Positions 13,008-42,305 of a stretch of DNA of 64,000 nucleotides are shown here, one piece after another; position 1 is the stretch's first letter; each line of letters starts with the position of its first letter. Origin of the DNA: Chromatiaceae bacterium (GTDB lineage: Bacteria > Pseudomonadota > Gammaproteobacteria > Chromatiales > Chromatiaceae). The notes beneath the pieces were generated by a model, which was given only the letters and a program-made list of their open reading frames with translations, had not been told where the DNA came from and ran no database searches. The DNA is taken from positions 27,380 to 91,379 of the forward strand of contig JBGAUK010000003.1 in the NCBI GenBank assembly GCA_044228695.1. Reading direction: 5' to 3'. A program made the position numbers and the translations under genes.

Positions 13008-13077
13008 TCCGGAATACACGAAATAGATTAGTCACCTAAATTCCACCTTGAAGCGCTTCCCCCTGACTACCTACTAC

Positions 13078-13875: not shown

Positions 13876-14092
13876 GAAGCGTGAAGGGCATTTATTTTAA
13901 TGCGCTTCCCTTACCTCTACTTACGCAAGAAGGGATATTACCTAGCGGCTGAGGGTGTAGCGCTCAGTCACTGCTCTGGCAGAAGAAATTACTGCCCAGT
14001 CTATCGTGCATGACCCATTGATGCAGAATCGGTACGCTAGTACTGCACTCTAGGTACTGGCCACTTCACCCGGGATCCCACCCATGATCTTT

Positions 14093-14130
14093 GCCGTCAA
14101 CTTGAAATTTCCATATTTCAAATTGACGGC
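14093..14130 (-). terminator. 16-bp imperfect inverted repeat (one mismatch) with a 6-nt loop, just downstream of the small lipoprotein ORF
   Basis: GCCGTCAACTTGAAAT (14093-14108), loop TTCCAT, ATTTCAAATTGACGGC (14115-14130). There is no clear U-tract. Confidence 0.35.
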
Positions 14131-14155
14131 AAATACTATCGAAACCGAGAAGTTA

Positions 14156-14302
14156 TTAATTGCGATCTGTTTTTGGCTCATACATCGGAGCTGGGGCTGC
14201 GGCGGCTGGCGCCGGCTCATGCTTCGAGGCGGTGCTACAAGCCGTAAGCAACAGCACCATAGCAATGGAGCTAATAAGGGCAAGTGTAGATGTGTTTTTC
14301 AT
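14156..14302 (-). CDS. Small lipoprotein (48 aa), not in the ORF track because it is under 60 aa
   Basis: My own translation: MKNTSTLALISSIAMVLLLTACSTASKHEPAPAAAAPAPMYEPKTDRN-TAA. It has a textbook signal peptide with lipobox LLTAC, an AGGTAA-like SD upstream and a hairpin downstream. Confidence 0.55.
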   Translation of the reverse strand: MKNTSTLALISSIAMVLLLTACSTASKHEPAPAAAAPAPMYEPKTDRN

Positions 14303-14578
14303 TTGTCGTTACCTATTTAGAGTTGATTTTAGAAATTCACGCCATTGAAGTACGACAGGTGATGTCGATACTTAGTTCCTAGTATAACCCACACAGAGCC
14401 GTTTGTATGTACGCTACCCAACATCTCCTACCTGGCTGTACAAGTTGACCAGCCCAGGAAAAAAGTTATCCTGATGCACACAAGCGGGATCGGTTCACGG
14501 AAGGATGGGTAGCGCTGCCAGAGCAGGCCGACCATCATCCGCGAAGTCGGGGCCTTCCTCAGGCACTGAACTGTTAGA

Positions 14579-14599
14579 CCTGGCACTTGAAGTGCCAGG
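14579..14599 (-). terminator. Perfect 9-bp stem / 3-nt loop hairpin 30 nt downstream of the 14630..15208 gene
   Basis: CCTGGCACT tga AGTGCCAGG, read directly. There is no U-tract. Confidence 0.35.
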
Positions 14600-14629
14600 T
14601 GGCGCACCCGCTTCCATCCCTCAGCCTGA

Positions 14630-15208
14630 CTATTCAAATCTAAGGGTATCGTCCAGATTATTCTTTGGTGCTTTTTTCATAAAAACAGGCGATCTTGCCT
14701 TATCAAAATCCACCTCTTCCAGATTCGACTGATATTCATTATCATTTCCAGAAAAAAGGCTCACTACTATTTTGTCGGATTGGTAAGCCATCACTGAAAT
14801 ACCGCTCCCCATTCCCGTTGCCTCGGCCACATAATAATTAAAATCCCCACTAGTAAACGAAAATATATTTTCGCCTGTTTTTGGAGTGGTAGAACGGTTA
14901 TATATGCCAAACCTGGCATTGCTTGTAGCCACCTGTTCCATTTCCACGTTGCCGATAGTTCCAAATCGATAAACAAATTTACTGAATGGCTCCTTCGGCT
15001 TGTCGGCACACAAGGATACAATCTTGCCGGTCTGCTTCAAATTATATCCCTTTCCCTGCTTTTCAAACTTCCCTAGCCTGGCATTCAAAAATGCAAACTC
15101 TCCCGTCTGACATAAAGTTGGAAAATCAGAACTCATCTGTGCCCAGGTGGACGATTGGAAACTCAACCCAAATGCAACGAAGAGTAATGAAGTGTATATT
15201 TTTTTCAT
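14630..15208 (-). CDS. Secreted hypothetical protein (192 aa)
   Basis: The Sec signal peptide is MKKIYTSLLFVAFGLSFQSSTWAQ. The gene is AT-richer than the flanks and shows no motif I recognise. Confidence 0.65.
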   Translation of the reverse strand: MKKIYTSLLFVAFGLSFQSSTWAQMSSDFPTLCQTGEFAFLNARLGKFEKQGKGYNLKQTGKIVSLCADKPKEPFSKFVYRFGTIGNVEMEQVATSNARFGIYNRSTTPKTGENIFSFTSGDFNYYVAEATGMGSGISVMAYQSDKIVVSLFSGNDNEYQSNLEEVDFDKARSPVFMKKAPKNNLDDTLRFE

Positions 15209-20169: not shown

Positions 20170-21429
20170 ATGAAACCCGATCGGATCATCGCGTTCGTCA
20201 TGGCGGGCGGCCAAGGCTCCCGCCTCCAGCCCTTGACCACGGCCCGCTCCAAGCCCTCGGTGCCTTTTGGCGCGCGTTACCGGATCGTCGATTTCGTCCT
20301 CAGTAATCTGGTCAACTCCAGCATCAACACCATCTATTTGCTGGTCCAGTACAAATCCCAGTCCCTCATCGAGCATGTACGCAAGTCCTGGACCATCTCC
20401 CCCCTGCTCCAGCAGCAATTCGTAACCGTGGTACCGCCCCAGATGCGGGTCAGCGAAAACTGGTTCCAGGGCACGGCGGACGCGGTTCACCAGAATATCA
20501 ATCTGATCGAGGAACAGGCCCCGGACCTGGTGGCCGTCTTCGGCGCCGACCACATCTACCGCATGGACATCCAGCAGATGGTGGATTTCCACAAGGCCAA
20601 CAAGGCCGATGTCTCAATCGCCGCCCTGCCCGTCCCGCTGCGTGATGCACGCGGCTTCGGCGTTATCGCCACCGGACCCGATGGGCGTATCCAGGCCTTC
20701 CAGGAGAAGCCGGCGAATCCCGCCGCCATGCCCGGCGATCCGCACCAAGCCTTTGCCTCCATGGGCAACTATATCTTTAAAACTGACGTGCTGATCGAGG
20801 CCCTGGAAGAGGCTCGCCGCAATGGCGAGACCGATTTTGGCGGTCATGTCCTGCCGCGCCTCCTGCGCAGCCACCGTCTTTTTGCCTATGATTTCGCGAC
20901 TAACGTGATTCCGGGCATCAAGCCCTACGAGCACCGGGTCTATTGGCGGGATGTCGGCAATATCGATGCCTATTTCGATGCCCACAAGGACGTGCTGGGC
21001 GCCGAACCCGTCTTTGATATGTTCAACCCCCAATGGCCGGTCTACTCCAGTGGCTACCAGGGGCCGGTGGCGCGGGTGCTGGGTGGGGAGTTGCGTAATT
21101 CCCTGCTGGCGGCCGCGACCATCGTCCACGAGGGCGCCCGTCTCACTAACACCATCGTCCGCCGCGAGGCCGTCATCGAGGAGGATGTGGAACTCGAGGA
21201 CTGTGTCATCATGGATTATGTGCGGGTCTGCCGGGGGGCGCGCCTGCGGCGGGTCATCGTCGATCGTCACAACATCATCGCTGCCGGCGATCGCATCGGC
21301 TTCGACCCGGAGGCCGACCGCCAGCGCTATACGGTCAGCGAGGGGGGAGTCACCGTGATCCCGGCCGGGCGCGTGAGCTACTTCGCCCGCGACCACCAGG
21401 GTGCCCTGGGCCGCAGCTATTCCAAGTGA
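20170..21429 (+). CDS. glgC: Glucose-1-phosphate adenylyltransferase
   Basis: Motifs MAGGQGSRLQPLT, WFQGTADAV and YWRDVGNIDAY, with a C-terminal left-handed beta-helix region. The SD is GAGGAGG. Confidence 0.95.
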   Translation: MKPDRIIAFVMAGGQGSRLQPLTTARSKPSVPFGARYRIVDFVLSNLVNSSINTIYLLVQYKSQSLIEHVRKSWTISPLLQQQFVTVVPPQMRVSENWFQGTADAVHQNINLIEEQAPDLVAVFGADHIYRMDIQQMVDFHKANKADVSIAALPVPLRDARGFGVIATGPDGRIQAFQEKPANPAAMPGDPHQAFASMGNYIFKTDVLIEALEEARRNGETDFGGHVLPRLLRSHRLFAYDFATNVIPGIKPYEHRVYWRDVGNIDAYFDAHKDVLGAEPVFDMFNPQWPVYSSGYQGPVARVLGGELRNSLLAAATIVHEGARLTNTIVRREAVIEEDVELEDCVIMDYVRVCRGARLRRVIVDRHNIIAAGDRIGFDPEADRQRYTVSEGGVTVIPAGRVSYFARDHQGALGRSYSK

Positions 21430-21430
21430 C

Positions 21431-22003
21431 ATGATCGACCGGCACCTTGATGACCATCTGCGCACCATCGAACTGCTGCGGGAACAAAGGGCGGACATCG
21501 AGGGCATCGCCGCCCTCATGATCGACTGCCTGGCCAGCGGGGGACTGGTGTTCTGGCTCGGCAATGGGGGGAGCGCGGCGGATAGCCAGCACCTGGCCTC
21601 GGAACTCGTTGGGCGCTTCGAGCGCGACCGGCCCGGCCTGGCCTCCATCGCCCTGACCACGGACAGCTCCGCCCTGACGGCCATTGGCAATGATTATGGC
21701 TTCGACCAGATCTTCGCCCGCCAGGTCGAGGCCCTGTGCCGGCCGGGGGATCTGGTCATCGGCATCAGCACCTCCGGCAACAGCCCCAATGTCCTGCGGG
21801 CGCTGGAAAAGGCGCGCGCCCTGGGGGCCAAGACCGCCGGCTTTGGCGGCCGAGGGGGCGGGCGCCTCAGGGGCTTGGTGGATGCCTGCCTGATCGCCCC
21901 CTCCGACAACACGGCGCGCATCCAGGAAGCGCACCTGCTCGTCGGCCATATCCTCTGTGACCTGGTCGAGGCGCACTTCGCGCCCCCCGCCGCCACTGCC
22001 TGA
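21431..22003 (+). CDS. gmhA: Phosphoheptose isomerase (SIS domain)
   Basis: Motifs GNGGSAADSQHLASEL and GISTSGNSPNVL. The ATG at 21431 lies 1 nt after the glgC stop. The track ORF starts at 21401, inside glgC. Confidence 0.9.
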   Translation: MIDRHLDDHLRTIELLREQRADIEGIAALMIDCLASGGLVFWLGNGGSAADSQHLASELVGRFERDRPGLASIALTTDSSALTAIGNDYGFDQIFARQVEALCRPGDLVIGISTSGNSPNVLRALEKARALGAKTAGFGGRGGGRLRGLVDACLIAPSDNTARIQEAHLLVGHILCDLVEAHFAPPAATA

Positions 22004-22012
22004 AGCCACGCC

Positions 22013-23497
22013 ATGTTCGAGCACCCCGAGGCCGTCCTGCGCGCCCTGCGTTCCGGCTTCGGCGCGCGCCGGGTCCTGGTCGTCGGCGATCTCATGCTCG
22101 ACCGTTATCTTTGGGGCCAAGTCCAGCGCATCTCCCCCGAGGCCCCGGTACCCGTAGTTCATCTGACCCGCCGCACCCAAACCGCTGGCGGGGCCGCCAA
22201 TGTCGCCCGCAACCTCTCCGCCCTGGGACTGGAGGTCCAGCTTGCCGGGGTCACGGGTGACGATGAAGGCCGCGCCGCCCTGCTCGCCGCCCTGGCCACC
22301 GACGGCATCCAGACCCAGGCGGTCGGCCTGGCCCGGGACCGGGCCACCACCGTCAAGACGCGGGTGATCGGCAATCACCAGCAGATGCTGCGTATCGACG
22401 AGGAGAGCAGCCGGCCCCTCGCCCCCGGGGACGAGTCCGCCCTCTGGGAGGCCATCCTGCCCCTCCTGCCGGGCGCTGGCGCCCTGGTGCTCTCCGATTA
22501 CGCCAAGGGCGTCCTCTCGGACACCCTCTGCCACCGGCTCCTGGCGGCGGCACGATCCCAGGGCCTGCCCGTCCTGGTTGATCCCAAGGGCCGGGACTTT
22601 GCCAAGTACGCCGGGGCCAGCCTCATCACCCCCAATCGGGCCGAACTCGCCCTGACCACCGGCGTCCCTCGCGAGGACTTGGCCGGCCTGCTCCAGGCGG
22701 CGGCAAGCCTGAGAGAGGGGTTGGACCTGGGGCTCCTGGTGCTGACCCTGAGCGAACTGGGCCTGGCTCTGGTTGACGGATCGGGCACCCGGCGCATCCC
22801 CGCCCTGGCGCGGGAGGTCTTTGATGTCTCAGGCGCGGGTGACACCGTCATCGCCACCTTTGCCGCTGGCCTTGCCGCGGGACTGGGTGCCAGCGATACC
22901 GCCCATCTGGCCAATCTGGCCGCCGGGGTGGTGGTCGGCAAGGTGGGGACCGTGCCCATTACCGGGCCTGAGCTCTTGGCCGCCATCAGCGGCGAGATGG
23001 CCCTGGAACAGGCCGCCAAGATCCTGGATCTGGCCGCGGCCCAGGCCCGGGTGCAGGGCTGGCAGGCCGCGGGCGAGCGCGTTGTCTTCACCAACGGCTG
23101 CTTTGACCTCCTCCACGTCGGCCATGTCAGCTACCTGGAGCTGGCCCGCCGGCAGGGCCAGCGCCTGGTGGTGGGCCTCAACACGGACCAGTCGGTGCGC
23201 GCCCTCAAGGGGCCGGAACGCCCTCTCATCGGCGAACAAGACCGCGCCCGGGTCCTCGCCGCCCTGGCCGCGGTGGATGCCGTGGTGCTGTTCGACGAGG
23301 CGACGCCCCTGGAACTCATTCTCGCCCTGCGCCCGGATGTCCTCGCCAAGGGTGCAGATTACCGGGAAGAGGAGGTCGTTGGGGCTCCGGAGGTGAAATC
23401 CTGGGGCGGCCAGGTGGTTCTGATACCCCTGGTCGATGATCGCAGCACCACGGGCATCATCCAGCGCCTGGAAGCCGCCAGGGGTCCCTCGGCCTAG
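22013..23497 (+). CDS. hldE: Bifunctional D-beta-D-heptose 7-phosphate kinase / D-beta-D-heptose 1-phosphate adenylyltransferase
   Basis: The N-terminal half is ribokinase-like (DVSGAGDTVIA). The C-terminal half is a cytidylyltransferase domain (FTNGCFDLLHVGHVSYL). Confidence 0.94.
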   Translation: MFEHPEAVLRALRSGFGARRVLVVGDLMLDRYLWGQVQRISPEAPVPVVHLTRRTQTAGGAANVARNLSALGLEVQLAGVTGDDEGRAALLAALATDGIQTQAVGLARDRATTVKTRVIGNHQQMLRIDEESSRPLAPGDESALWEAILPLLPGAGALVLSDYAKGVLSDTLCHRLLAAARSQGLPVLVDPKGRDFAKYAGASLITPNRAELALTTGVPREDLAGLLQAAASLREGLDLGLLVLTLSELGLALVDGSGTRRIPALAREVFDVSGAGDTVIATFAAGLAAGLGASDTAHLANLAAGVVVGKVGTVPITGPELLAAISGEMALEQAAKILDLAAAQARVQGWQAAGERVVFTNGCFDLLHVGHVSYLELARRQGQRLVVGLNTDQSVRALKGPERPLIGEQDRARVLAALAAVDAVVLFDEATPLELILALRPDVLAKGADYREEEVVGAPEVKSWGGQVVLIPLVDDRSTTGIIQRLEAARGPSA

Positions 23498-26650: not shown

Positions 26651-27925
26651 CTACTTGGCGGCGGCCAGCGCCTGGGCTAGGTCCTCGATGATGTCGTCGA
26701 TATGCTCGATGCCGATGGAGAGACGGATCATGTCCTCCGCAACACCGGCGCGTGCCAGTTCCGCCGGGGTGAGCTGGCGGTGGGTGGTGGTGGCCGGGTG
26801 GCAGGCCAGGGTTTTGGCGTCGCCGATGTTGACCAGCCGCACCGCCAACTTGAGGGCGTCAATAAACTTGGCCCCGGACTCCAGACCACCCTTGATGCCG
26901 AAGGACAGGATGCTGGAGGCGCGGCCGCCCATGTACTTATCCACCAGGGTCTTGTCCGGGTGATCCGGCAGGCCGGCGTAGCGTACCCAGGCCACCTGGG
27001 GCTGCGCCTGGAGAAATTGGGCCACCGCCAGGGCATTCTCGCAATGGCGATCCATGCGCACGTGCAAGGTCTCGATCCCCTGCAGGATCAGGAAGCTGTT
27101 AAAGGGCGAGATGGCCGCGCCCATATTACGCAGCGGCACCACCCGCGCCCGGCCGATATAGGCCGCCACCCCCAGGGCCTCGGTATAAACCACGCCGTGA
27201 TAGGAGACATCGGGCTCGTTGAGACGGCGGAAGCGCGCCTTGTGCTCGGCCCAGGGGAACTTGCCCGAGTCCACCAGGGCGCCGCCGATGGTGGTGCCAT
27301 GGCCGCCCAGGTACTTGGTCAGGGCATGGACGACGATGTCGGCGCCATGCTCGAAGGGCCGGCACAGATAGGGCGTCGGTACCGTGTTGTCCACGATGAG
27401 GGGGATGCCGTGGGCATGGGCCATGTCCGCCATGGCGCCGATATCCGCCACGTTGCCCGCCGGGTTGCCGATGGATTCGCAGAAGACCGCCTTGGTGCGC
27501 CCGTCGATGAGGGCCGCCATGCCCACGATATCGTTGGGCTTGGCGAAACGCACCTCGATGCCCAGTTGCGGCAAGGTGTGGGCAAAGAGGTTGTAGGTGC
27601 CGCCATAGAGGGTCGAGGTGGTGACGATGTTGTCGCCCGTCTCGCAGATGGTGAAGAGCGAATAGGTCACCGCCGCCATGCCCGAGGCCAGGGCCAGGCC
27701 ACCGATGCCGCCCTCCAGGGCCGTCAGCCGCTTCTCCAGCACGTCGCTGGTGGGGTTCATCATGCGGGTGTAGATGTTGCCAGCTACCTTGAGGTCGAAG
27801 AGATCCGCACCGTGCTGGGTGTCGTCAAAGGCGTAGGAAGTGGTCTGGTAGATGGGCGTGGCAACGGACTTGGTGGTCGGGTCCGGCTCAAAGCCGGCAT
27901 GAATGGCCAAGGTCTCGATCTTCAT
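26651..27925 (-). CDS. metY: O-acetylhomoserine sulfhydrylase (PLP-dependent Cys/Met metabolism family)
   Basis: 424 aa, with MKIETLAIHAG, YTRMMNPT and the PLP-lysine region VVHALTKYLGGHG. The SD is AGGAGA. Confidence 0.92.
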   Translation of the reverse strand: MKIETLAIHAGFEPDPTTKSVATPIYQTTSYAFDDTQHGADLFDLKVAGNIYTRMMNPTSDVLEKRLTALEGGIGGLALASGMAAVTYSLFTICETGDNIVTTSTLYGGTYNLFAHTLPQLGIEVRFAKPNDIVGMAALIDGRTKAVFCESIGNPAGNVADIGAMADMAHAHGIPLIVDNTVPTPYLCRPFEHGADIVVHALTKYLGGHGTTIGGALVDSGKFPWAEHKARFRRLNEPDVSYHGVVYTEALGVAAYIGRARVVPLRNMGAAISPFNSFLILQGIETLHVRMDRHCENALAVAQFLQAQPQVAWVRYAGLPDHPDKTLVDKYMGGRASSILSFGIKGGLESGAKFIDALKLAVRLVNIGDAKTLACHPATTTHRQLTPAELARAGVAEDMIRLSIGIEHIDDIIEDLAQALAAAK

Positions 27926-28154
27926 GGAATCTCCTGGATGGTGGGATAGGTTATTGGCTTTTTGTAAGGGCTCCGCGATCGGGCCAGGGCAGGCACACGG
28001 CCAGGGGTGATCTTGGTAAGATCCTGGCGGGGACCGGTTTTATGGGAAGATGTCGGAATTTATGTCTATTTCTCCCCTGGCTGTCCCTGTATCATCTCAG
28101 AAAGCAGAGTCGTCATCACCCACCTATCTTCCAAGCGAGAGGGATCCTCACCCC

Positions 28155-29594
28155 ATGGCCGCCACCCCCGCGCCGCCCCTGGCCGTTGACCTCGACGGCA
28201 GCCTGGTACGCACCGACACCTTGTGGGAAACCCTCTTCACCCTGCTGCGCCACCAGCCACTCGCCTTGATCGCCGCCCTCGCGAGCCTCCGCCATGGCCG
28301 GGCCGCCTTCAAGGCCCACCTGGTCACCCGGGCGCCCCTGGATGTCGCGGACCTGCCCCTCAACACCGCCCTGATCGACTGGCTGCGCCAGGAGGGCGCC
28401 ACCGGCCGCCTCCTGGTTCTGGCCACCGCCACCGATCAGCGCGTCGCCCGGGCCCTCGCCGACCGCGTCGGCCTCTTCGCCCAGGTCCTCGCCAGCGACG
28501 GCCACCACAACCTCAAGGGCCCCGCCAAGGCCGCCGCCCTGGTGGAGCGCTTCGGTCAAGGCGGCTTCGACTATGTCGGCGATGCCCGCGCCGACCTCCC
28601 CGTCTGGGCCGCCGCCCGCCACGCCATCGTCGTTGGCGGCGCCGGGCTGGTCCGGGCCGCCAGCCAGGTCGCCCGGGTCGAGCGCGTCTTCGCCCCCGCG
28701 CCACGGGCCCCCGCCCTGTGGCGCGCCCTGCGCCTCCATCAGTGGGCCAAGAACCTCCTCCTCTTCCTGCCCCTGCTTGCCGCCCACCAGGTCGGTAACG
28801 GCGCCCAACTGCTTGCCGCCGGTCTCGCCTTTCTGGCCTTCGGCCTCACCGCCTCCGCCGTCTATCTGCTCAACGATCTCCTCGACCTGAGCGCCGATCG
28901 CCGCCACCCCAGTAAATGCCGCCGGCCTTTCGCCGCCGGCACCCTGCCCCTGGCCTGGGGCCTGCTTCTGGCACCCCTCCTGCTGCTGGGGGCCGCCACC
29001 ATCAGCCTGCTCTGGCTGCCCGCCCCCTTTGGCGCGATTCTGGTGGGCTACTTTCTCCTCACCAGCGCCTATTCCTGGGACTTCAAGCGCCGCCCCATCC
29101 TGGATGTCATGACCCTGGCCATGCTTTACACCCTCCGCGTCATTGCCGGCGGCGCGGCGGTAGCCCTCTGGCCCTCCTTCTGGCTGCTGGCCTTGTCACT
29201 CTTCCTCTTTTTCAGCCTGGCCCTGGTCAAGCGCTACGCCGAGCTCGACAGTCTCAAGGGGCGGGGAGAACTTACCAGCGGGGGACGCGGCTGGCATGTT
29301 GACGACCTACCCCTGATCGGTGGCCTGGGCGCCGCCGCCGGCCTGGGCGCCGTGCTGGTGCTGGCACTCTACATCGACAGCGAACCGGCGCGCCGGCTCT
29401 ACCAGTTGCCCGAGGCCCTCTGGCTCATCACCCCTCTGCTGCTCTACTGGGTTAGCTACCTCTGGTTCAGGACCCATCGCGGGGAGATGAACGAGGACCC
29501 GGTGGTCTTTGCCCTGCGCGACCGGGTCAGTCTGGGTATCGGCGCAATGGCGGTCGCCGTCCTCCTGGTGGCCACCCAAGGGGGCGGCCCATGA
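28155..29594 (+). CDS. Fusion protein: N-terminal HAD-like phosphatase domain plus C-terminal UbiA-family polyprenyl-phosphate phosphoribosyltransferase (DPPR-synthase-like)
   Basis: The HAD motifs are AVDLDGSLV and DYVGDARADLPVW. The UbiA Asp-rich motif is NDLLDLSADRRHPSKCRRPFAAG, followed by about 8 TM segments. The track ORF starts at 28050, but codon bias becomes GC3-rich only from the ATG at 28155, which has GAGGGA upstream. Confidence 0.8.
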   Translation: MAATPAPPLAVDLDGSLVRTDTLWETLFTLLRHQPLALIAALASLRHGRAAFKAHLVTRAPLDVADLPLNTALIDWLRQEGATGRLLVLATATDQRVARALADRVGLFAQVLASDGHHNLKGPAKAAALVERFGQGGFDYVGDARADLPVWAAARHAIVVGGAGLVRAASQVARVERVFAPAPRAPALWRALRLHQWAKNLLLFLPLLAAHQVGNGAQLLAAGLAFLAFGLTASAVYLLNDLLDLSADRRHPSKCRRPFAAGTLPLAWGLLLAPLLLLGAATISLLWLPAPFGAILVGYFLLTSAYSWDFKRRPILDVMTLAMLYTLRVIAGGAAVALWPSFWLLALSLFLFFSLALVKRYAELDSLKGRGELTSGGRGWHVDDLPLIGGLGAAAGLGAVLVLALYIDSEPARRLYQLPEALWLITPLLLYWVSYLWFRTHRGEMNEDPVVFALRDRVSLGIGAMAVAVLLVATQGGGP

Positions 29595-30892
29595 CCGCTA
29601 ATCCCGAATCCTGGGGCCGCTATCCCAGGGCGACGCCCGCCAGAATCAGCCGCCTCACCAACCGCCTGGCCCCGCTACCGGAAAGTGATCTGCCACTGCT
29701 GGTGTACGGCAATGGCCGCAGCTACGGCGACGTCTGCCTCAATGACGGCGGTCAGGTGCTGCTCGCGCGGGGTCTGGACCGTTTCATCGCCTTTGATCCG
29801 GAGACCGGCATCCTGCGGGCCGAGGCCGGCGTTCTCCTGTCCGAGATCCTGGAGCTGGTGGTCCCCCAGGGCTGGTTCCTGCCCGTCACCCCCGGCACCC
29901 GCTTCATCACCCTGGGCGGGGCCGTGGCCAATGACGTCCACGGCAAGAATCACCACGGCGCCGGCACCTTTGGCTGCCATGTGCGCGCCCTGGAGTTGGT
30001 ACGCTCCGATGGCAGTCGGCGGGTCTGTGCGCCGGGCGAAAACCCGGACTGGTTTGCCGCCACCATCGGGGGTCTGGGCCTGACCGGACTCATCACCTGG
30101 GTGGAAATCCAGCTCCGGGCCATCGCGGGTCCCTGGATTCAGGCCGAGAGTCGGCGTTTCCGCACACTGGCTGACTTCTTTACCCTGTCGGAAGCATCGG
30201 ATCGGAACCATGAATTCACCGTGGCCTGGGTCGATTGCGCCGCGCGCGGGGCCAAGCTGGGCCGGGGCATCCTCCTGAGCGGTGACTTCGCCCCCGGGGA
30301 CCTGGGGACCGGTAAGCCCCCCCAGTCCCATGGCCGGCTCACCGTCCCGGTAACCCCTCCGCTGTCCCTGATCAACGCGCTCAGCCTCAAGGCCTTCAAT
30401 GCCCTCTACTATCGCAAGCCCGAGGGGGCCTTCCTCAGCCACTATGCTCCATTCTTCTATCCCCTAGACGGTATCGGCCACTGGAACCGGATTTACGGAC
30501 CCAAGGGCTTTTTGCAGTATCAATGCGTACTGCCACCGGCCGCGGCAGAACCGGCGCTACGCGACTTGCTGGGGCGCATCGCCGCCAGCGGGGAGGGCTC
30601 CTTTCTGGCGGTGCTCAAGCGCTTTGGTGATAAAACCTCGCCAGGACTGCTGTCCTTCCCGCGGCCAGGGGTGACCATTGCCTTGGACTTTCCCTTTAAG
30701 GGCGAGGCAACGCTGCGCCTGCTGGATAGCCTGGATGCCGTGGTCGCGGCGTCCGGCGGGGCCCTCTATCCGGCCAAGGATGCTCGGATGAGTCCGGAGA
30801 TATTTCGGCGGTCATTTCCATTAGTGGAGCGATTTCTGCCTTTTCTGGATATTAGTTTCTCTTCGGGGTTATGGAAGAGATTGGTCAAATAA
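29591..30892 (+). CDS. FAD-binding oxidoreductase, DprE1-like (polyprenyl-phospho-ribose 2'-oxidase candidate)
   Basis: PCMH-type FAD-binding N-terminus with YGNGRSYGDVCLN and GGAVANDVHGKNHH. The start overlaps the previous stop (ATGA). Confidence 0.8.
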   Translation: MTANPESWGRYPRATPARISRLTNRLAPLPESDLPLLVYGNGRSYGDVCLNDGGQVLLARGLDRFIAFDPETGILRAEAGVLLSEILELVVPQGWFLPVTPGTRFITLGGAVANDVHGKNHHGAGTFGCHVRALELVRSDGSRRVCAPGENPDWFAATIGGLGLTGLITWVEIQLRAIAGPWIQAESRRFRTLADFFTLSEASDRNHEFTVAWVDCAARGAKLGRGILLSGDFAPGDLGTGKPPQSHGRLTVPVTPPLSLINALSLKAFNALYYRKPEGAFLSHYAPFFYPLDGIGHWNRIYGPKGFLQYQCVLPPAAAEPALRDLLGRIAASGEGSFLAVLKRFGDKTSPGLLSFPRPGVTIALDFPFKGEATLRLLDSLDAVVAASGGALYPAKDARMSPEIFRRSFPLVERFLPFLDISFSSGLWKRLVK

Positions 30893-30911
30893 GGTTTTTA
30901 GGAGTCTGTTT

Positions 30912-31565
30912 ATGCCTTCCTTGGTTAATGATTTTTTTCGTCGTCCTGCGTCGTCCCTGATTTTTGTATTGTTGATGGGTGTGATTGTATATATTGGTAT
31001 TATGCATTTCAAATATAACTCAGAATACGGACTTGATGATAGTTATATAACCTACCGTTACGCCTATAATTTTGCAGAGGGGTATGGTCTCGTTTTCAAT
31101 CCCGGCGAAAAACATTATGGTTCAACCGCAGCTGGTTATGCGATTATAGTTGGATCAATTTCCAAGGCAATAGCCTTTGCCGGCACATTCCTCGGGATTA
31201 ATGAACCTAATAATTGGGACCTGCGATATCTGATTCCAATCGTATCGCATACCATAAGCACATTTTCATTAATGGTCGGGGCGCTTATTTTGGTTTTAAT
31301 CTCAAGGAATGCTTTAGGAGCTATGGCAGGCAACATGGCTGGGGGATTCACTGTGCTAATGTTATTTTTCTCAAATCCCTCAAGCAGCGTTGTCGGACAT
31401 GAAACCTATTTATTTCTTGTGCTTTGGCTTTTATCTTCATACCTTGCTATATTTCTTAGTCGATATTTTTTGAGTGCTATCGTATTAGCTGTTGCTACCA
31501 CAGTGAGGCCTGACAGCATTCTTTTTGCAGGTATTTTATTTATAGCAATCGGTTTTTCAGTTTAA
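30912..31565 (+). CDS. GT-C-like polytopic glycosyltransferase, N-terminal fragment (217 aa)
   Basis: Strongly AT-rich. A good AGGAG SD is present. An acidic loop motif GLDDSYITYRYAYNFAEGYGLVFNPGE follows the first TM helix, then more TM helices. The fragment ends at a TAA next to T5 and A8 homopolymers. Confidence 0.65.
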   Translation: MPSLVNDFFRRPASSLIFVLLMGVIVYIGIMHFKYNSEYGLDDSYITYRYAYNFAEGYGLVFNPGEKHYGSTAAGYAIIVGSISKAIAFAGTFLGINEPNNWDLRYLIPIVSHTISTFSLMVGALILVLISRNALGAMAGNMAGGFTVLMLFFSNPSSSVVGHETYLFLVLWLLSSYLAIFLSRYFLSAIVLAVATTVRPDSILFAGILFIAIGFSV

Positions 31566-31651
31566 AAAAAATAGGTCTATATAATACAATTAAGGAAACC
31601 AGGTGGCCCGCGGTTTTATACATTTCAATTATTGCCGCTTGGTTACTGTTA

Positions 31652-32542
31652 ATGTGGATATATTATGGTCAACCATTTCCTGAAACACGCATTGCAAAGC
31701 AAGCCCAAGTTGTCCTAGGACAATGGCCGCTTTTTGGTCCAAAAAAAGTTTTTAATTACCTATCCGATAATCTCAGAGTTTCTATTTTGGTGTTAATGAT
31801 ACTTTTCCTGTTGGCAAGCATTGCAAACTTTATATATTTAGTCGCAAAACGACATAACGACCTTGATATAAAAATAAATTATAATCTAAATTTACTCGCA
31901 TTCTCCGCGGTTTGGTTCATTGTAGCTATTGGACTTGTTTTTGCGTATACTATCTTAAACGTTACCTATTGGCATTGGTATGCTGTCCCCATATGGTTCG
32001 CCATTATTTGTATGTTACCCGGTCTATTCATCCCGGTTTTCGCTAATCTCAGATCTTCCTCTCTGCTTATTAATGGGTTAGGATTAGTGGGGCTTGCCAG
32101 TGTAATAGCCGCTTTTATCATTTTTGATCGTGGTCATATTTTGTGGCTATTTAATACGATGCAGGTTAAGCAGCATACTAGTAAACATATTGGCAGTTAT
32201 AATGGCGTCATCGAAATATTGCATTTAGAACACCCGGAAGGAACTTCCATAGCCACTGCGGAACCCGGGTACCTCGGATTCGCTCTTGGGCCTAATTTCC
32301 AGGTTGTAGACACACTTGGTTTAGCCAGCCCCGGTGTTGCCCGTGCTATTCTGGTAGGAGATATGGATTACCCTTTCAAGACTTGGGCACCACAATTCTT
32401 GGTTTCCGCAGCCAAGGGTAAATTTGATCCTAAACAAAGAGCCTGGTTCAAAGAGACTTATCGTCTTCATTCGGAATTAACCGATCCATACTGGACTATT
32501 AAGTTAAAGGGGCCATACCAGCTTTATGAAAAAATTAATTAA
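31652..32542 (+). CDS. GT-C-like glycosyltransferase, C-terminal fragment (296 aa from the ATG; the frame is open from 31514)
   Basis: It has the same AT-rich composition, several TM helices and a soluble C-terminal domain. There is no SD before the ATG at 31652. The frame overlaps the end of the previous fragment, so a 1-nt indel would fuse both into 543 aa. Confidence 0.65.
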   Translation: MWIYYGQPFPETRIAKQAQVVLGQWPLFGPKKVFNYLSDNLRVSILVLMILFLLASIANFIYLVAKRHNDLDIKINYNLNLLAFSAVWFIVAIGLVFAYTILNVTYWHWYAVPIWFAIICMLPGLFIPVFANLRSSSLLINGLGLVGLASVIAAFIIFDRGHILWLFNTMQVKQHTSKHIGSYNGVIEILHLEHPEGTSIATAEPGYLGFALGPNFQVVDTLGLASPGVARAILVGDMDYPFKTWAPQFLVSAAKGKFDPKQRAWFKETYRLHSELTDPYWTIKLKGPYQLYEKIN

Positions 32543-32575
32543 ATTTATCTGCTTTGTGTATAATTTGAGAAAATT

Positions 32576-33313
32576 ATGTCTCGATACTTAATAATCGGCG
32601 CCACATCCGCGCTAGCCGATCAGATTGGACGTATTCTGGCCTGCTCTGGTGCTTCGCTATATCTAACTGGTAGAGACATCAATCGGCTCAAGATATCAGT
32701 CAAGGATCTGCGACTGCGTGGTGCTATCCAAACCACTATGGAACAATTGGATGTGACGGATACCGCTAGTCTTGTCGGGCTGATTAATCGCGCGGCGACC
32801 AGTCTTGGTGGGTTGGATGCCGTTATTTTTGCGGCGGGTCAGCTCCCCGATCAAGCCCAGGTGAACGCGGATTTCGACCTGTTGCGACGCACCCTGGAAG
32901 TGAATGCCATCAGCGCCATGTTGGTGCTAAACGAGGCCGCCGCCTATTTCGAGCACCAGGGCCACGGCCAACTCGTCGCCATCGGCTCGGTCGCCGGGGA
33001 TCGTGGCCGAGCCACCAACTACGCTTATGGCGCCGCCAAGGGAGCGCTGGAGATCTTCATGTCCGGCCTCCGCCAGCGCCTGCACAAGAGCGGCGTCCAG
33101 GTGCTTCTGGTCAAGCCGGGCTTTGTCGATACGCCCATGACGGCGGATTTCCCCAAGGGGCCCCTGTGGGCCAGTCCGCAGCGAGTTGCCGAAGACATCG
33201 TCCGGGCCATGGAGAAAGGCCGCTCGGTGATCTACACCCCCTGGTTCTGGCGCTGGATCATGCTTGTTATTCGCCATATCCCGGAGCGCCTTTTCGTGCG
33301 GCTGCGCTTCTGA
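32576..33313 (+). CDS. Short-chain dehydrogenase/reductase, DprE2-like (2'-keto reductase candidate)
   Basis: The Rossmann motif is IIGATSALADQIG. The catalytic region has YGAAKGAL (YxxxK). Confidence 0.8.
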   Translation: MSRYLIIGATSALADQIGRILACSGASLYLTGRDINRLKISVKDLRLRGAIQTTMEQLDVTDTASLVGLINRAATSLGGLDAVIFAAGQLPDQAQVNADFDLLRRTLEVNAISAMLVLNEAAAYFEHQGHGQLVAIGSVAGDRGRATNYAYGAAKGALEIFMSGLRQRLHKSGVQVLLVKPGFVDTPMTADFPKGPLWASPQRVAEDIVRAMEKGRSVIYTPWFWRWIMLVIRHIPERLFVRLRF

Positions 33314-34278
33314 TGGCCAGGGACCCCGGCGCGCAAGATCCGGCCCCCGACCCGCGGTTGCAACGGCGCCTTCGTCAGGTGGCGCTGGTCGCGGCCCTGG
33401 CCGTGCTCGCCTATCTGGGGTTGGCGGTGCTGGGGGACGGCGACCTGATGCGGGATGGGCTCCAGCGGCTGGGACCCGGCCAATGGTTGGCGCTCCTCGG
33501 GCTGTCTCTGTTCAACTATGGGATGCGCTTCCTGCGCTGGCACACCTACCTGCGGGCGCTGGGCGCGCGGATTCCCTTGGGGCGGGACCTGCTCATCTAT
33601 GTCGCCGGCTTCGCCTTCACCGTCACCCCGGGCAAGGCGGGTGAGGCGGTACGCTCCTTCTACCTGCGTGGGGTGGGGGTGCCCTGGTCGCCCGGCCTGG
33701 CGGCGTTGGCCGTGGAGCGGGTGCTGGATCTCACGGTCATCCTGATGCTGGCGGCGCTGGCGCTGCGGGTATTCGCTGACCAGGCCGTGCCGGCCTTGCT
33801 GCTGGTAGGGCTAGTGGCGGGACTGCTGGTAGGGGTGACGCGCCCGCGGGTGGCGCGCGCCCTGTTGGGGCGGCTCCCCCCGGGTGGGCGCTGGGGGCGC
33901 CTGGCGCGGGGCACGACGGCGATTCTGGACGACGCCCGCTTGCTGCTGGCGCCCCGGCGACTCCTGGTGGGTCTGGGCTTGGGGTTATTGGCCTGGGGCG
34001 CCGAGGCCTGGGGCTTTTATCTGCTGCTGCAGTGGCTCGGGGTGGCCGCCGCGCCCGGCCACGCCATGGGCATCTACGCGGTGGGGATGCTGTCAGGGGC
34101 GCTGTCCTTCCTGCCCGGGGGCCTCGGCGGCGCCGAGGCGGCCATGATCGCCCTGCTGGTCGCTGGCGGAGCGGTCTTTGGGACCGCCGTGCTGGCTACC
34201 GTCATCTGCCGGGCGGTGACCCTCTGGTTCGCGGTGGTACTGGGGATTGGGGCGGTGTTGTTAATGGGTCGCCGGTGA
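33313..34278 (+). CDS. Flippase-like polytopic membrane protein (LPG_synthase_TM / UPF0104-type)
   Basis: It shows LSLFNYGMRFLRWHTYLRALG...FTVTPGKAGEAVR plus further TM helices. The ATG at 33313 overlaps the SDR stop (TGATG). The track ORF starts earlier, inside the SDR gene. Confidence 0.7.
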   Translation: MARDPGAQDPAPDPRLQRRLRQVALVAALAVLAYLGLAVLGDGDLMRDGLQRLGPGQWLALLGLSLFNYGMRFLRWHTYLRALGARIPLGRDLLIYVAGFAFTVTPGKAGEAVRSFYLRGVGVPWSPGLAALAVERVLDLTVILMLAALALRVFADQAVPALLLVGLVAGLLVGVTRPRVARALLGRLPPGGRWGRLARGTTAILDDARLLLAPRRLLVGLGLGLLAWGAEAWGFYLLLQWLGVAAAPGHAMGIYAVGMLSGALSFLPGGLGGAEAAMIALLVAGGAVFGTAVLATVICRAVTLWFAVVLGIGAVLLMGRR

Positions 34279-34402
34279 GGCGGTAGGAGCCCAGCCCCCT
34301 GGGCGACTCCTCGGCGTTTCAGCCGATCAGGCTCCAGAGGCCCCTGGAAAATCCCAAAACGCAATACCCCGCCAACCGACGCCTACCGGGGTTTGACCCC
34401 TT

Positions 34403-36112
34403 TCAGGTACCCGCCCGCGTTAAGTCCGCCTGCTGCTCTTCAACGGCAGCCATGGCCTCATCCTGATAGTGATAGCCGGGTCGCTCCGTGTCCTTTTTGA
34501 CCCGCCGATAGAGGCGCCAGACCCGCCAGGCATAGGCGAGCAAACCTGAATAGGTGGTCCAGATCTCGCCGAGGCGGCGGGGGTAGAAGACCCAGGGCGA
34601 TTCGAGGGGGAGTTGCGGGCGACGCTCGGTGCGGACCTTGCGGCGAAGGAAGCCACCCTGGAGGGGATGCACCCGCTCGAACTTGAAGCAGCCGTAAAAT
34701 TCCAGCGCTATCTCCATGATGCGCTTCGGATTACGGTCGAATGCCGCGGCCCGCCGCATCAGGGTCTCCAGATGGTCCAGGGCGTAATAGGAGTCCCAGG
34801 CCTGGCGATAAATGTCTTGCCACTCCGTCTTAGTCATGCGGGGATGGGTGGTGCAGACATGCTCCAGGTCATAGCGATTCAGGTCAGGCTCCAGGGGCGC
34901 GCCCCGTTGGTAAAGGGCCAGGTGATCCGCCGAGCCCGGCAGGGGCGTCAGGCAGAAGAATTCCAGGATGTCGAGGGGCAGTTCACGCTTGATGGTCTCA
35001 ATGTCCCTGAGGATGCTGGCCGGGGTGTCGTCCGGGAAACCCAGGATATAGCCGCAATAGGTGGTCACCCGCTGCCGCTGCCAGGCCAGGAGCATGCCGC
35101 GGTAGTTGGCGATCTTGTTCTGCTTCTTGTTGGCGGACTTGAGGTTGTCAGCGCTGACGGTCTCCAGGCCGATAAAGACCCGGGAGACGCCCGCCGCCCG
35201 GGCCTTGACGACAAAGCCCGGTAGGGTGTGGCACATGGTGTCCACCTGGATGGTGAAGTTGAACTTGACCTCCAGTTCCCGCCGGACCTGCGCGATGCGG
35301 TCGAAGATGGGCTCCCAATTGCGGTTGCGGGCAAAGTTGTCGTCGGTGATGAAATAGTGACGGATGCCATGGGCCAGGTTGGCCCGTAGCAGTTGCTCAA
35401 TGTCGTCCGGGTCGCGGAAGCGGGACTTGCGCCCCTGGACATTGATGATGGTGCAAAAGCTGCACAGGAAGGGGCAGCCGCGGCCGGCATCGAAGGTACC
35501 CGGCATAGGGGCATAACGCCGCGCCACCTCGGGCGGCAGATAGGGCAGGGCCTGACCCTGGAGCCCGGGCAACTGGGCCATGAAGTTGTAGATAGGCTCC
35601 AGGCGCCGCTCGTAAGCCGCGCGCAGCAGGTCCGCGAAGTGCTCCTCCGCCTCGCCGGCGAAGAGGGTGATGCCCAGATCGAGCGCCTCTTGCAACTCCC
35701 CGGGCAGGTCCGGGAGCATGGCCAGACAGCCGCTGACATGAAAACCGCCGATCGCCACCTGCAGGCCCGCCTGACGAAAGCGGCGCGCCAGGTCGAGGGC
35801 GCGGGGATACTGGTTGGACTGGACCCCCACCAGGCAGACCAGCCCCTGCCCGCCGTTTGCCTGGAGGCGGCGGATGATCCGCGCCACCGGCACCACGGCA
35901 TTGGTCTCGTCATAGGCCTCGATGCCGATCTCCACCCCCGCGCCGAGCACCCCTTGCTGGTTGGCGGCGCGGGCCAGTCCAAAGAGACAAGCCAGGGAGT
36001 TCGAGGGAATCCAGGCCTTGACCCATTGAATGACATAACCCTCATCGTCGTAATGGGAGGGCTTGATCAGTTCCACCAGAAAGTGGCGGCGGGCGGGCTT
36101 GTGGCTGTTCAT
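34403..36112 (-). CDS. Class B (B12-binding domain) radical SAM protein, function unknown
   Basis: The CxxxCxxC motif is GCPFLCSFC. The N-terminal region is B12-binding-like. The likely start is the ATG at 36112 (MNSHKPARR), with AAGGA upstream. The track ORF extends to 36328. Confidence 0.85.
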   Translation of the reverse strand: MNSHKPARRHFLVELIKPSHYDDEGYVIQWVKAWIPSNSLACLFGLARAANQQGVLGAGVEIGIEAYDETNAVVPVARIIRRLQANGGQGLVCLVGVQSNQYPRALDLARRFRQAGLQVAIGGFHVSGCLAMLPDLPGELQEALDLGITLFAGEAEEHFADLLRAAYERRLEPIYNFMAQLPGLQGQALPYLPPEVARRYAPMPGTFDAGRGCPFLCSFCTIINVQGRKSRFRDPDDIEQLLRANLAHGIRHYFITDDNFARNRNWEPIFDRIAQVRRELEVKFNFTIQVDTMCHTLPGFVVKARAAGVSRVFIGLETVSADNLKSANKKQNKIANYRGMLLAWQRQRVTTYCGYILGFPDDTPASILRDIETIKRELPLDILEFFCLTPLPGSADHLALYQRGAPLEPDLNRYDLEHVCTTHPRMTKTEWQDIYRQAWDSYYALDHLETLMRRAAAFDRNPKRIMEIALEFYGCFKFERVHPLQGGFLRRKVRTERRPQLPLESPWVFYPRRLGEIWTTYSGLLAYAWRVWRLYRRVKKDTERPGYHYQDEAMAAVEEQQADLTRAGT

Positions 36113-40427: not shown

Positions 40428-41288
40428 TCACCGCTTCAAGATCCTTCCCAGCGGACCCAGCAGGTACTGACTGAAACCCCAGCCCAGGGCCGCACAGCCA
40501 ATGGCCATTTGCAACCCTCTCGCCCCGGCGTAACCCCCGTCCGACAGGATCAGCATGACGGCGGCGCCCGCCGCCAATAGGGCGCAAGCCAGATGCACCC
40601 CCAGATGGACCGCCGCCGCCTTCCAGCGTTGGGACAACCAGACACCCAGCCAGGCCGCCAGCCAGCCTCCCGCCAGCCCGGCGGCCACATCCACTGGCCA
40701 GTGCACCCCGACAGCCACCCGGCTGAGACCCACGGTCAGCGCCAGCGCCATCAACAGCAGCCGCGCGGCCATCCCCTGGATGAAACAGAGCCAGACGCCC
40801 AGCAGCACCGCCGCCGTCACCGTGTGGCCGGAGGGAAAGCTGGACTTGCGCAGGGCGGGGCCGATCAGATGAAAGCTATCCAGCGCCAGCACCGCCGGGG
40901 GCCGCCCGGCCGAGACCCAGGGCTTGAGGCCATGGGTAAAGGCCGTCGCCACCAGGGCTGCCAGAATCAGGGCCCAGAAAAGGCGCGGGTGGCGCAGGCT
41001 GAAAAAAAGCGACAGGGCAATGGCCAGGCGGGCATCGCCCAGCACCGTCAGCCACTCCCAGAACCCGGGCGGCCAACTCGCGGCCAGGTGGTTGAGGGTG
41101 AGAAAGCCCGCTTGGTAGCCGCCCAGGAGGAAAAGCGCCAAACCCACCAGCGCCGCCGCAAGGGCGCCCCAGGTTAGCCAAGGGCAGCCGCCGGATACCA
41201 GTCGTTCGCGCTCCAGCCCCGCCACCAGGGCCAGGCGCAGATCGGTAGCCAGGGCGGTGGCCAGGGCACGGGGGTCCAGCCTAGCCAT
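40428..41288 (-). CDS. PAP2-family membrane phosphatase
   Basis: All three acid-phosphatase motifs are present: KPWVSAGRP, PSGH and SRVAVGVHWPVD. Confidence 0.88.
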   Translation of the reverse strand: MARLDPRALATALATDLRLALVAGLERERLVSGGCPWLTWGALAAALVGLALFLLGGYQAGFLTLNHLAASWPPGFWEWLTVLGDARLAIALSLFFSLRHPRLFWALILAALVATAFTHGLKPWVSAGRPPAVLALDSFHLIGPALRKSSFPSGHTVTAAVLLGVWLCFIQGMAARLLLMALALTVGLSRVAVGVHWPVDVAAGLAGGWLAAWLGVWLSQRWKAAAVHLGVHLACALLAAGAAVMLILSDGGYAGARGLQMAIGCAALGWGFSQYLLGPLGRILKR

Positions 41289-41366
41289 GCCCCGACCCCA
41301 TCAGGTGCCGTCCCCAGTGCCGTGCCCCTGCCCTCCCGGCCCGCGAGTCCCTGCCCGCCGCCACCC

Positions 41367-42305
41367 TCATCCTTCAGCCCCTCGCGCCTGTCGCCAACCG
41401 ACGGAATAGATAGGCGGCTCCCCGGGCGGTCGGGTCTTGAAGCGCCGATGCACCCAGAAATACTGGGCCGGCAGGGTCCGGATCAGGCCCTCGATCACCT
41501 GGTTCATGGCGGTGGTGTCCGCGACCTCGTCGCCACTGGGAAAGGACGCCAGCGGCGTGCCAAAGATGACCTCCAGACCCTGGCCCCAGGGCCGGTAACG
41601 GGCATGGATCGGGATCACCACGGCATCCGCCAGTCGGGCGAAGCGACCCAGCATGGGGTAGGTCGAGGCCTGGACGCCGCAGAAGGGCACGAAGATACCG
41701 CGCCAGCGACCGGCATCCTGATCCGGCAGGTAGAAAAAGGGGATGCCCTGGCGAATCTTGCGCACCAGGCCCCGCAGGTCATCCTGACGTTCCACGGACA
41801 GGGCGCCAAAGCGCATCCGACCGGCTCGCATCCGCGCATCGATCACCGGGTCCCGAATCCTCTGGTACATGAACATGCCCGGGTTGACCAGGGCAGTGAA
41901 GGCCGCCCCCCCCAGTTCCAGGCCGATGAAGTGCGGCAGGAGGACGATGACGTTTTGCCCCCGCGCATGTAACTCATCGAAACGCTCCCGGTTGCGGAGT
42001 TGGACCAGCCGCGCCAGCCGGCGACGCGAGGCGCCCCACACCAGGCCCTGCGTCAGGGCGGCGACCCCCAGATAACCAAAGTGCCGGGAGACCAGCCGCT
42101 CCCGCTCGCGTGGCGACAGCTCCGGCAGGCAGAGTTCCAGATTACGCCGGGCCACCCGGCGCCGGCCCAGGGCGATCCACCCCACCAGTCGCCCAAGCCC
42201 CATGCCCAGCAACCAGAGGAGGGGAAAGGGCAGCAAGCCCAGCAGCCGCACCAGCCCCACCGCCAGCCAACTGGGCCAGTATCTTGGGGATAGGAGGGGA
42301 TTCAT
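41367..42305 (-). CDS. lpxL: Lipid A biosynthesis late acyltransferase (LpxL/HtrB family)
   Basis: 312 aa, with an N-terminal membrane anchor PRYWPSWLAVGLVRLL and HFIGLE (HX4E-type acyltransferase motif). Confidence 0.85.
   Translation of the reverse strand: MNPLLSPRYWPSWLAVGLVRLLGLLPFPLLWLLGMGLGRLVGWIALGRRRVARRNLELCLPELSPRERERLVSRHFGYLGVAALTQGLVWGASRRRLARLVQLRNRERFDELHARGQNVIVLLPHFIGLELGGAAFTALVNPGMFMYQRIRDPVIDARMRAGRMRFGALSVERQDDLRGLVRKIRQGIPFFYLPDQDAGRWRGIFVPFCGVQASTYPMLGRFARLADAVVIPIHARYRPWGQGLEVIFGTPLASFPSGDEVADTTAMNQVIEGLIRTLPAQYFWVHRRFKTRPPGEPPIYSVGWRQARGAEG

Follow-up and report, generated by a model that had tools for sequence, protein, structure and literature searches.

We analysed a window of 64,000 nucleotides of DNA from a Chromatiaceae bacterium (NCBI GenBank assembly GCA_044228695.1, contig JBGAUK010000003.1, positions 27,380 to 91,379 of the forward strand) and found in it a cassette of five genes, one of them frameshifted, at positions 28155-34278. 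Its gene content makes it likely that this is a self-contained cassette that adds D-arabinofuranose to an envelope glycan outside the cytoplasm, as a variant form of the three-component pentofuranose systems. In the proposed pathway, a fused HAD-UbiA protein is predicted to make polyprenyl-phosphate-ribofuranose from 5-phosphoribosyl pyrophosphate (PRPP), its HAD domain removing the 5-phosphate. A DprE1-like oxidase and a DprE2-like reductase would then invert C2 to yield polyprenyl-phosphate-beta-D-arabinofuranose, which an MprF/YbhN-type protein would carry to the periplasmic leaflet. Finally, an AftB-like glycosyltransferase of the GT-C fold would move the arabinofuranose (Araf) onto the acceptor by means of a DD aspartate in its first periplasmic loop. 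As acceptor, a surface polysaccharide modified after polymerisation, for example lipopolysaccharide (LPS) O-antigen, core or an exopolysaccharide, is the most likely candidate.

An earlier reading of this DNA, referred to below as the original prediction, had described a self-contained candidate system for periplasmic pentofuranosylation, encoded by six consecutive plus-strand open reading frames (ORFs) with overlapping or near-touching ends. The functional reading is supported: every functional assignment survived testing, and nothing turned up of what the original prediction had named as refuting it. The coordinates of the ORFs, within 28050-34278 on the plus strand, were confirmed as well, together with the two overlaps read from the sequence, ATGA at 29591-29594 (stop of the fusion gene, start of the oxidase gene) and TGATG at 33311-33315 (stop of the reductase gene, start of the flippase-like gene). 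The number of genes had to be revised: there are five, because the third and fourth ORFs are one gene.

The first gene had been proposed to encode a UbiA-family enzyme of the PRPP:decaprenyl-phosphate phosphoribosyltransferase type fused to a HAD phosphatase, and our searches bear out both parts. The protein matched Pfam UbiA (6.5e-16) and, over its full length with the HAD domain included, NCBIfam PRK08238 (620 bits; cutoff 351). The NCBIfam DPPR-synthase models reached 1e-40, and models of other UbiA-family prenyltransferases, haem O synthase included, scored no better than 1e-10. Mycobacterium tuberculosis Rv3806c (entries 8j8j and 8j8k, 2e-26) provided the sole PDB sequence matches of the UbiA domain at E<=0.001. 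The Asp-rich motif NDLLDLSADRRHPSKCRRPFAAG aligned with NDVRDVEADREHPTKRFRPIAAG of Rv3806c, the NDxxDxxxD loop NDLLDLSAD with NDVRDVEAD of the same enzyme, and the R-x-x-E motif (RYAE, in KRYAEL) was conserved. The N-D-x-x-D-x-x-x-D residues are essential in Rv3806c and in ORF15 of Citrobacter youngae (PMC11127046). Judged by these matches, the UbiA domain groups with the PRPP-dependent decaprenyl-phosphate phosphoribosyltransferases and not with quinone or haem prenyltransferases. The HAD domain bears the nucleophile motif DLDGS, with the catalytic Asp of loop I, at residues 11-15 of the 479-residue protein; no Pfam HAD match was obtained at E<0.01 for the protein of the window, and its orthologue in genome L001 has a precomputed one. 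By analogy with C. youngae ORF15 (PMC11127046), we infer that this domain acts as a phosphoribosyl 5-phosphatase. A start at 28155 is supported by the PRK08238 alignment, which sets in at residue 37 of the longer ORF, and by the length of the Thiosymbion-type orthologue, 479 residues. The HAD-UbiA fusion was also encoded on 89 plasmid records, all annotated merely as UbiA family prenyltransferase, and no phage-borne homologue was present in the phage collection searched. In a Thermodesulfovibrionia genome (L013, 5190-6661) two neighbouring genes encode the HAD phosphatase and the UbiA synthase, which are not fused there.

The resemblance of the second product, a PCMH-type flavin-dependent oxidase, to DprE1 and that of the short-chain dehydrogenase/reductase (SDR) to DprE2 were likewise borne out. 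The oxidase matched Pfam FAD_binding_4, its best NCBIfam match was the DprE1 model (6e-105), and its alignment with DprE1 of the PDB (2.7e-74 over residues 37-416) far surpassed that with the next family (7e-12). The catalytic-site Lys is kept in an AKD motif. Because Ala replaces Cys387, the covalent target of benzothiazinones, the enzyme would be expected to be insensitive to these inhibitors. The SDR, encoded in the same operon, matched adh_short and PRK07102 (285 bits, above the cutoff), with the DprE2 model next best (6e-48). It aligned end to end with DprE2 of the PDB, the C-terminal RHIP tail included (5e-30, versus 4e-15 for other SDRs). Since their scores lie under the NCBIfam equivalog cutoffs, we refer to both proteins as homologues and not as orthologues of DprE1 and DprE2.

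An AlphaFold model of the transferase built from an 18-sequence alignment (pLDDT 88.8, pTM 0.90, the predicted local and global confidence scores) retrieved GT-C enzymes exclusively in Foldseek: ALG12, AftB, STT3, ArnT, ALG9, DPY19, PglB and AftA. In the model the C-terminal domain is a small alpha/beta domain. When the family profile was compared with the PDB, mycobacterial AftB was the sole match (4.9e-10), with a second weak stretch in the C-terminal domain. D42 and D43, the DD motif of the first periplasmic loop, are invariant in the family. AftB contacts a donor analogue through D62, T91, E172, R221, T274 and R372 (PMC12041299); the first five of these align with the family-invariant D43, T72, E164, R199 and T259. 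Seven of the 18 relatives matched the NCBIfam AftB model NF041481 (GT89) weakly, 1.9e-8 at best. EpsG-family models (GT136), used in place of the ORF12 sequence itself, matched none of the 18 members at E<=1, and neither a TPR domain nor detectable similarity to Emb-type enzymes was found in the transferase. These comparisons point to a distant relative of AftB, not to an AftB orthologue. The AftB-like superfamily is large, with 21,847 cluster representatives at E<=0.001 and 881 at E<=1e-30. One Binatia cassette (L015, 10016-17232) contains two AftB-like GT-C paralogues of 545 and 710 residues, which suggests more than one arabinosyl transfer there.

The original prediction had recognised a GT-C glycosyltransferase split in two; the fold stands, and the split proved to be a single gene broken by a one-base deletion. 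Searched as a fused translation, the third and fourth ORFs were covered end to end by intact homologues of 535-546 residues. The gene was intact in the best two, which are 92% (L010) and 88% (P0001) identical. L010 is a Chromatiaceae metagenome-assembled genome with 93.4% DNA identity to the window over 28831-34317. Compared with it, the window is one base short, an A being missing between 31556 and 31557, where L010 reads GGATTTATCAGT and the window GGTTTT-TCAGT; a stop in frame 0 follows seven bases past the deletion (31563-31565). With the A restored, the gene has 543 codons. In the shifted frame there is no start codon upstream of 31652, the overlap contains no slippery site, and the second ORF would start inside a transmembrane helix. 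Programmed frameshifting or transcriptional slippage at the run of eight A was rejected, as the first bases of that run belong to the frame-0 stop, the overlap is devoid of an X XXY YYZ site and L010 is intact with one extra base.

Because the apparent split of the transferase is a one-base frameshift, this genome may lack a working system. We considered the possibility that the cassette is a decaying remnant, its transferase a true pseudogene, so that at most an orphan lipid-linked arabinose would be made and nothing glycosylated. The position of the stop, the shifted frame that offers no start before a transmembrane helix and the intact genes of L010 and P0001 all fit this explanation. Yet all 48 of 48 family-invariant residues are kept on the two sides of the break, and against L010 the 5' and 3' parts have ratios of nonsynonymous to synonymous substitution rates (dN/dS) of 0.25 and 0.27, respectively, so that any inactivation must be very recent; a single-base assembly or sequencing error is a further possible source. 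The lesion is therefore either very young, in which case the last step has probably been lost, or an error in the sequence. A decaying remnant is thus a serious possibility, though we lean away from it.

The last protein had been described as a flippase-like protein of the LPG_synthase_TM type, which our results corroborate. It matched this Pfam family (PF03706, COG0392, YbhN/PplT) at 7.7e-42 (144 bits; cutoff 33) as a stand-alone protein devoid of a synthase domain. With a model of pLDDT 83, the top six Foldseek matches were all MprF flippase domains, five of the six at E<=0.001, with template modelling scores of 0.55-0.61. We infer that this MprF-like protein is the donor flippase. The best evidence is a mutually exclusive pattern: the orthologues sampled in Thiohalocapsa, Endozoicomonas and Aquabacterium all three adjoin DprE1/DprE2-like genes, and a GtrA protein takes the place of the flippase in sister cassettes of Luteibacter, Rhizobium leguminosarum plasmids, Burkholderia and a metagenomic lineage. 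The protein might instead move or scramble another lipid, the donor crossing the membrane by way of an unlinked protein or of the GT-C enzyme itself. The characterised members of the fold do act on glycerophospholipids or glycolipids (MprF, HexF of Clostridioides difficile, the glucosaminyl-phosphatidylglycerol (GlcN-PG) flippase of Pseudomonas aeruginosa), and by sequence the protein has no PDB match. However, its tight linkage to DprE1/DprE2-like genes extends across Gamma- and Betaproteobacteria, and the substitution by GtrA argues in the same direction. In archaea, moreover, the PF03706 domain is fused or linked with polyprenol-phosphate-sugar transferases such as the dolichol-phosphate-hexose transferase AglD and with STT3/PMT-like enzymes, and a flippase role has been predicted for it (PMC5898192). 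We therefore hold action on another lipid to be unlikely and keep to the donor flippase.

The acceptor was approached through the genomic neighbours of related cassettes. In Pseudomonas sp. PH1b (L024, 71-16162) the cassette comes after genes for a GT2 enzyme, Wzm, Wzt with a carbohydrate-binding Wzt_C domain, a 1638-residue WbsX/GT1/GT2 enzyme and an epimerase; together these make up an O-antigen locus of the ABC-transporter type, as in the C. youngae prototype. In Candidatus Manganitrophus the cassette is interleaved with genes for sugar epimerases and an acyltransferase (Acyl_transf_3), and an Acyl_transf_3 gene also neighbours the cassette of L010. The analogy with these neighbourhoods favours a surface polysaccharide as target, lipid A/core and proteins being less likely. 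An ArnT-like decoration of lipid A or the inner core would be in keeping with the presence of ArnT among the structural neighbours, with the separate position of the cassette, away from any O-antigen locus of the window, and with HldE-like, GmhA-like, PAP2 and lipid A acyltransferase genes within about 8 kb. A 1978 paper by Tharanathan et al. is said, by its title, to describe a D-arabinose-containing lipid A in the phototroph Rhodospirillum tenue. The likeness to ArnT is, however, that of the generic GT-C fold, the LPS genes are mixed with housekeeping genes, and the homologous cassette of PH1b lies within an O-antigen locus, so that we consider this acceptor quite improbable. O-arabinosylation of a protein, as in the P. 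aeruginosa TfpW pilin system, would share its donor pathway with group IV pilin glycosylation, and the fold neighbours of the transferase include the protein glycosyltransferases STT3, PglB and DPY19. Against this stand the absence of a pilin gene from the flanks of the cassette within the window, where the nearby GspA and GspB genes belong to type II secretion and lie on the opposite strand, and a transferase free of TPR repeats and Emb-type similarity; we regard a protein acceptor as very unlikely. The linkage formed could possibly be beta, because the only detectable characterised relative, AftB, is a retaining enzyme, stereochemistry being a feature that sequence similarity alone does not decide.

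Several points weigh against the arabinofuranosylation reading as a whole. The steps of the mechanism are transferred by homology from characterised enzymes, and the chemistry is a prediction from the genes. The transferase is frameshifted in the window, with neither an alternative start nor a slippery site. Its identity with AftB is only about 16%, no equivalent of R372 was identified, and the transferase of the window, searched by itself, matched nothing in Pfam, NCBIfam or the PDB. Many AftB-like members, especially in Chloroflexota, lack donor genes in the surrounding 10 kb; the family is hence not restricted to Araf. The oxidase scored 352 bits against the DprE1 model NF053785 (equivalog cutoff 500) and the SDR 164 bits against the DprE2 model NF053786 (cutoff 250). 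No polysaccharide genes were found adjoining the cassette in the flanks of the window. The weakest step is that assigned to the MprF-like protein, for which the evidence is fold and gene linkage alone.

The transferase gene differs from its neighbours in composition. Its GC content is 0.39 and its GC content at third codon positions (GC3) 0.35, versus GC3 values of 0.7-0.9 for the operon and the genome. GC3 is similarly low in the transferase genes of L010 (0.35) and Ca. Thiosymbion (0.38), and it lies below that of the cluster mates in 11 of 12 cassettes. The Ca. Thiosymbion transferase is 47% identical to that of the window and the neighbouring proteins 69-77%. In both lineages this AT-rich, faster-diverging tract extends past the transferase gene on either side, covering the final ~40 codons of the oxidase gene and the initial ~100 of the reductase gene, and its ends look like recombination junctions within conserved flanks. 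A metagenomic GtrA-type cassette has a transferase 44% identical to the window's and donor proteins 38-46% identical, the opposite of the pattern in other cassettes of comparable divergence. Since its transferase is relatively closer to the window's than its donor genes are, modules appear to be exchanged between cassettes. In the window/L010 pair, synonymous divergence (dS) is uniform across the operon (0.16 for the transferase, 0.15-0.25 for the neighbours), so the transferase was not swapped recently in this pair, and a recent horizontal replacement is unsupported there as the source of the low GC. Nor is the composition explained by the gene encoding a membrane protein, the UbiA and flippase genes of the same operon having GC3 values of 0.85-0.88. 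All 12 of the 12 sigma-70-like promoter matches in 27800-34600 fell inside the transferase gene (30984-32121, on both strands), shuffled sequence giving an expectation of 2.7. Composition probably accounts for them, though they could be relevant to silencing or antisense transcription.

Related cassettes varied in order and content. The order of the five genes was the same in L010 and Ca. Thiosymbion and permuted in Imhoffiella, Competibacter, Pseudomonas sp. PH1b and Ca. Manganitrophus. Just past the cassette (34318 onward) the window and L010 cease to be homologous; there, L010 has an Acyl_transf_3 membrane acyltransferase gene (L010 5479-7264) instead of the radical SAM (S-adenosylmethionine) gene. 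The transferase slot is variable, the membrane proteins found in it in other cassettes not matching the AftB-like profile. The GT-C candidates of the Rhizobium, Jannaschia, Burkholderia, Endozoicomonas and Aquabacterium cassettes showed neither a match to this profile nor AT-richness, and these two features are therefore not general to such cassettes. Thiohalocapsa sp. PB-PSB1 (L093, 5330-10035) has the donor genes and the flippase-like gene and no adjacent GT-C gene; its transferase must be elsewhere or absent. In Aquabacterium sp. J223 (L095, 9001-13713) the DprE1-like gene is apparently split (312 + 115 residues) and no HAD-UbiA gene is adjacent, so that this is possibly another decaying cassette.

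Table 1. Features of the cassette, in positions of the 64,000-nucleotide window
Feature	Position	Strand	Basis
HAD-type phosphatase domain, N-terminal part of the fusion, predicted phosphoribosyl 5-phosphatase (PRP)	28155-28694	+	PRK08238 alignment; DLDGS motif in the translation
UbiA-fold domain, predicted polyprenyl-phosphate 5-phosphoribosyltransferase (PPPRS/DPPRS-like)	28695-29594	+	Pfam UbiA; NCBIfam DPPR-synthase; Rv3806c
DprE1-like FAD oxidase, predicted polyprenyl-phosphate-ribose 2'-oxidase	29591-30892	+	FAD_binding_4; DprE1 match
AftB-like GT-C glycosyltransferase gene, whole	30912-32542	+	Frameshifted; family profile and model
GT-C gene, 5' part, frame 0, with DD (D42, D43), HET and RPD	30912-31565	+	Alignment; model
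Frameshift site, one A missing	31556-31557	+	DNA alignment with L010; repaired reading frame
GT-C gene, 3' part, shifted frame (mechanical ORF 31652-32542)	31557-32542	+	PET motif; conserved C-terminal EPG...LGP...D.LGL.SPGVA domain
DprE2-like SDR, predicted to convert the 2'-keto intermediate to arabinofuranose	32576-33313	+	YxxxK; C-terminal RHIP
MprF/YbhN-type (PF03706) flippase-like membrane protein, candidate polyprenyl-phosphate-Araf flippase	33313-34278	+	Pfam; fold
AT-rich tract, GC about 0.35-0.5 versus 0.65-0.72 around	30800-32900	.	Transferase gene and adjoining gene ends

The positions of the features are given in Table 1. An AGGAG ribosome-binding site precedes the ATG of the transferase gene at 30912. 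The flanks had been named as metY and a radical SAM gene, and this was correct: a metY-like gene for a Cys/Met pyridoxal-phosphate enzyme lies upstream, and downstream the radical SAM gene is followed by GspB and GspA. Near the cassette, though not adjoining it, are LPS-related genes for a nucleotidyltransferase, a GmhA-like SIS protein and an HldE-like kinase/adenylyltransferase (20170-23497); downstream, a PAP2 phosphatase gene lies beside one for a lipid A acyltransferase (40428-42305). A second AT-richer islet at 12204-15208 holds three ORFs of 267, 265 and 192 residues (GC3 0.59, 0.58 and 0.42) with no Pfam matches.

The original prediction had held that related Gram-negative genes are known only from pilin arabinosylation by the TfpW system and from Nod-factor arabinosylation. 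That view is outdated by Kelly et al. (PNAS 2024; PMC11127046), who showed the activity of a HAD-UbiA fusion biochemically and described widespread three-component periplasmic pentofuranose systems. The same work noted DprE1/E2 homologues in Araf-containing systems and loci for unknown glycans, listed MATE or SMR flippases and a GT136 transferase as components, and pointed out that a pentofuranose side chain in beta linkage would require a retaining GT-C enzyme like AftB, a case not found until then. The mechanism was thus read correctly, but it is no longer new and its novelty was overrated; the finding opens no new category of biology. It does extend the hosts of this decoration route to purple sulfur bacteria, Competibacter and some Pseudomonas, connect AftB, the capping enzyme of mycobacteria, with a family that is widespread outside the actinobacteria, and nominate an MprF/YbhN-type protein as a third kind of flippase for lipid-linked pentose. 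The AftB-like enzymes of these cassettes make the retaining beta-pentofuranose case of Kelly et al. testable, and Pseudomonas sp. PH1b, which is culturable, Imhoffiella purpurea and Luteibacter are tractable organisms for finding a D-Araf glycan and for asking whether AftB-like enzymes outside mycobacteria retain configuration. A more far-reaching proposal, which we put forward as speculative and rather doubtful, is that AftB-like GT-C enzymes and MprF/YbhN-type flippases together would define a distinct, undescribed Gram-negative class that installs beta-D-Araf by a retaining mechanism, and in which the transferase slot would be an exchangeable specificity module whose AT-richness is preserved through long spans of evolution.

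Four known systems can be compared with the cassette. The gtrABC clusters for O-antigen glucosylation in Shigella and Salmonella likewise combine a conserved donor/flippase module with a variable, serotype-specific GT-C enzyme, remote from the O-antigen locus (PMC11127046, PMC3688519); they differ in their donor, undecaprenyl-phosphate-glucose made from UDP-glucose by a GT2 enzyme, with no PRPP chemistry or epimerisation. Group IV pilin arabinosylation in P. aeruginosa (PsPA7_6245-6249 and TfpW) shares the PRPP-dependent synthase, the DprE1/DprE2 pair, lipid-linked D-Araf and a GT-C enzyme with an essential DD, but has a separate phosphatase and a GtrA-like small membrane partner. TfpW itself is a protein of 646 residues with C-terminal TPR repeats and a proline-rich motif, encoded beside pilA and unlinked to the donor genes.

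The decaprenyl-phospho-arabinose pathway of mycobacteria (Rv3806c, Rv3807c, DprE1, DprE2, Rv3789, AftB) provides the best characterised relative for each of the four catalytic proteins, and the cassette transferase retains the DD, T, E, R and T residues of the AftB donor site. There, however, the phosphatase is the PAP2-type Rv3807c instead of a fused HAD domain, and the flippase candidate is the GtrA-like Rv3789 instead of an MprF-like protein. In the Gram-negative Chromatiaceae host, moreover, the lipid is presumably undecaprenyl, and a single transferase replaces the Emb/Aft battery. The ORF15-ORF14-ORF12 system of C. youngae O1/O2 (PMC11127046) resembles the cassette in its HAD(PRP)-UbiA(PPPRS) fusion, optional epimerisation, dedicated flippase candidate and periplasmic GT-C enzyme. 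The flippases listed in that paper are solely of MATE or SMR type, where the cassette has an MprF/YbhN-type PF03706 candidate; the transferase of the cassette is AftB-like, with no detectable EpsG/GT136 signal, and its gene is strongly AT-rich; and the cassette stands alone, outside an O-antigen locus. By these comparisons, the cassette differs from the systems of Kelly et al. in two of the three component families and in its AT-rich transferase.

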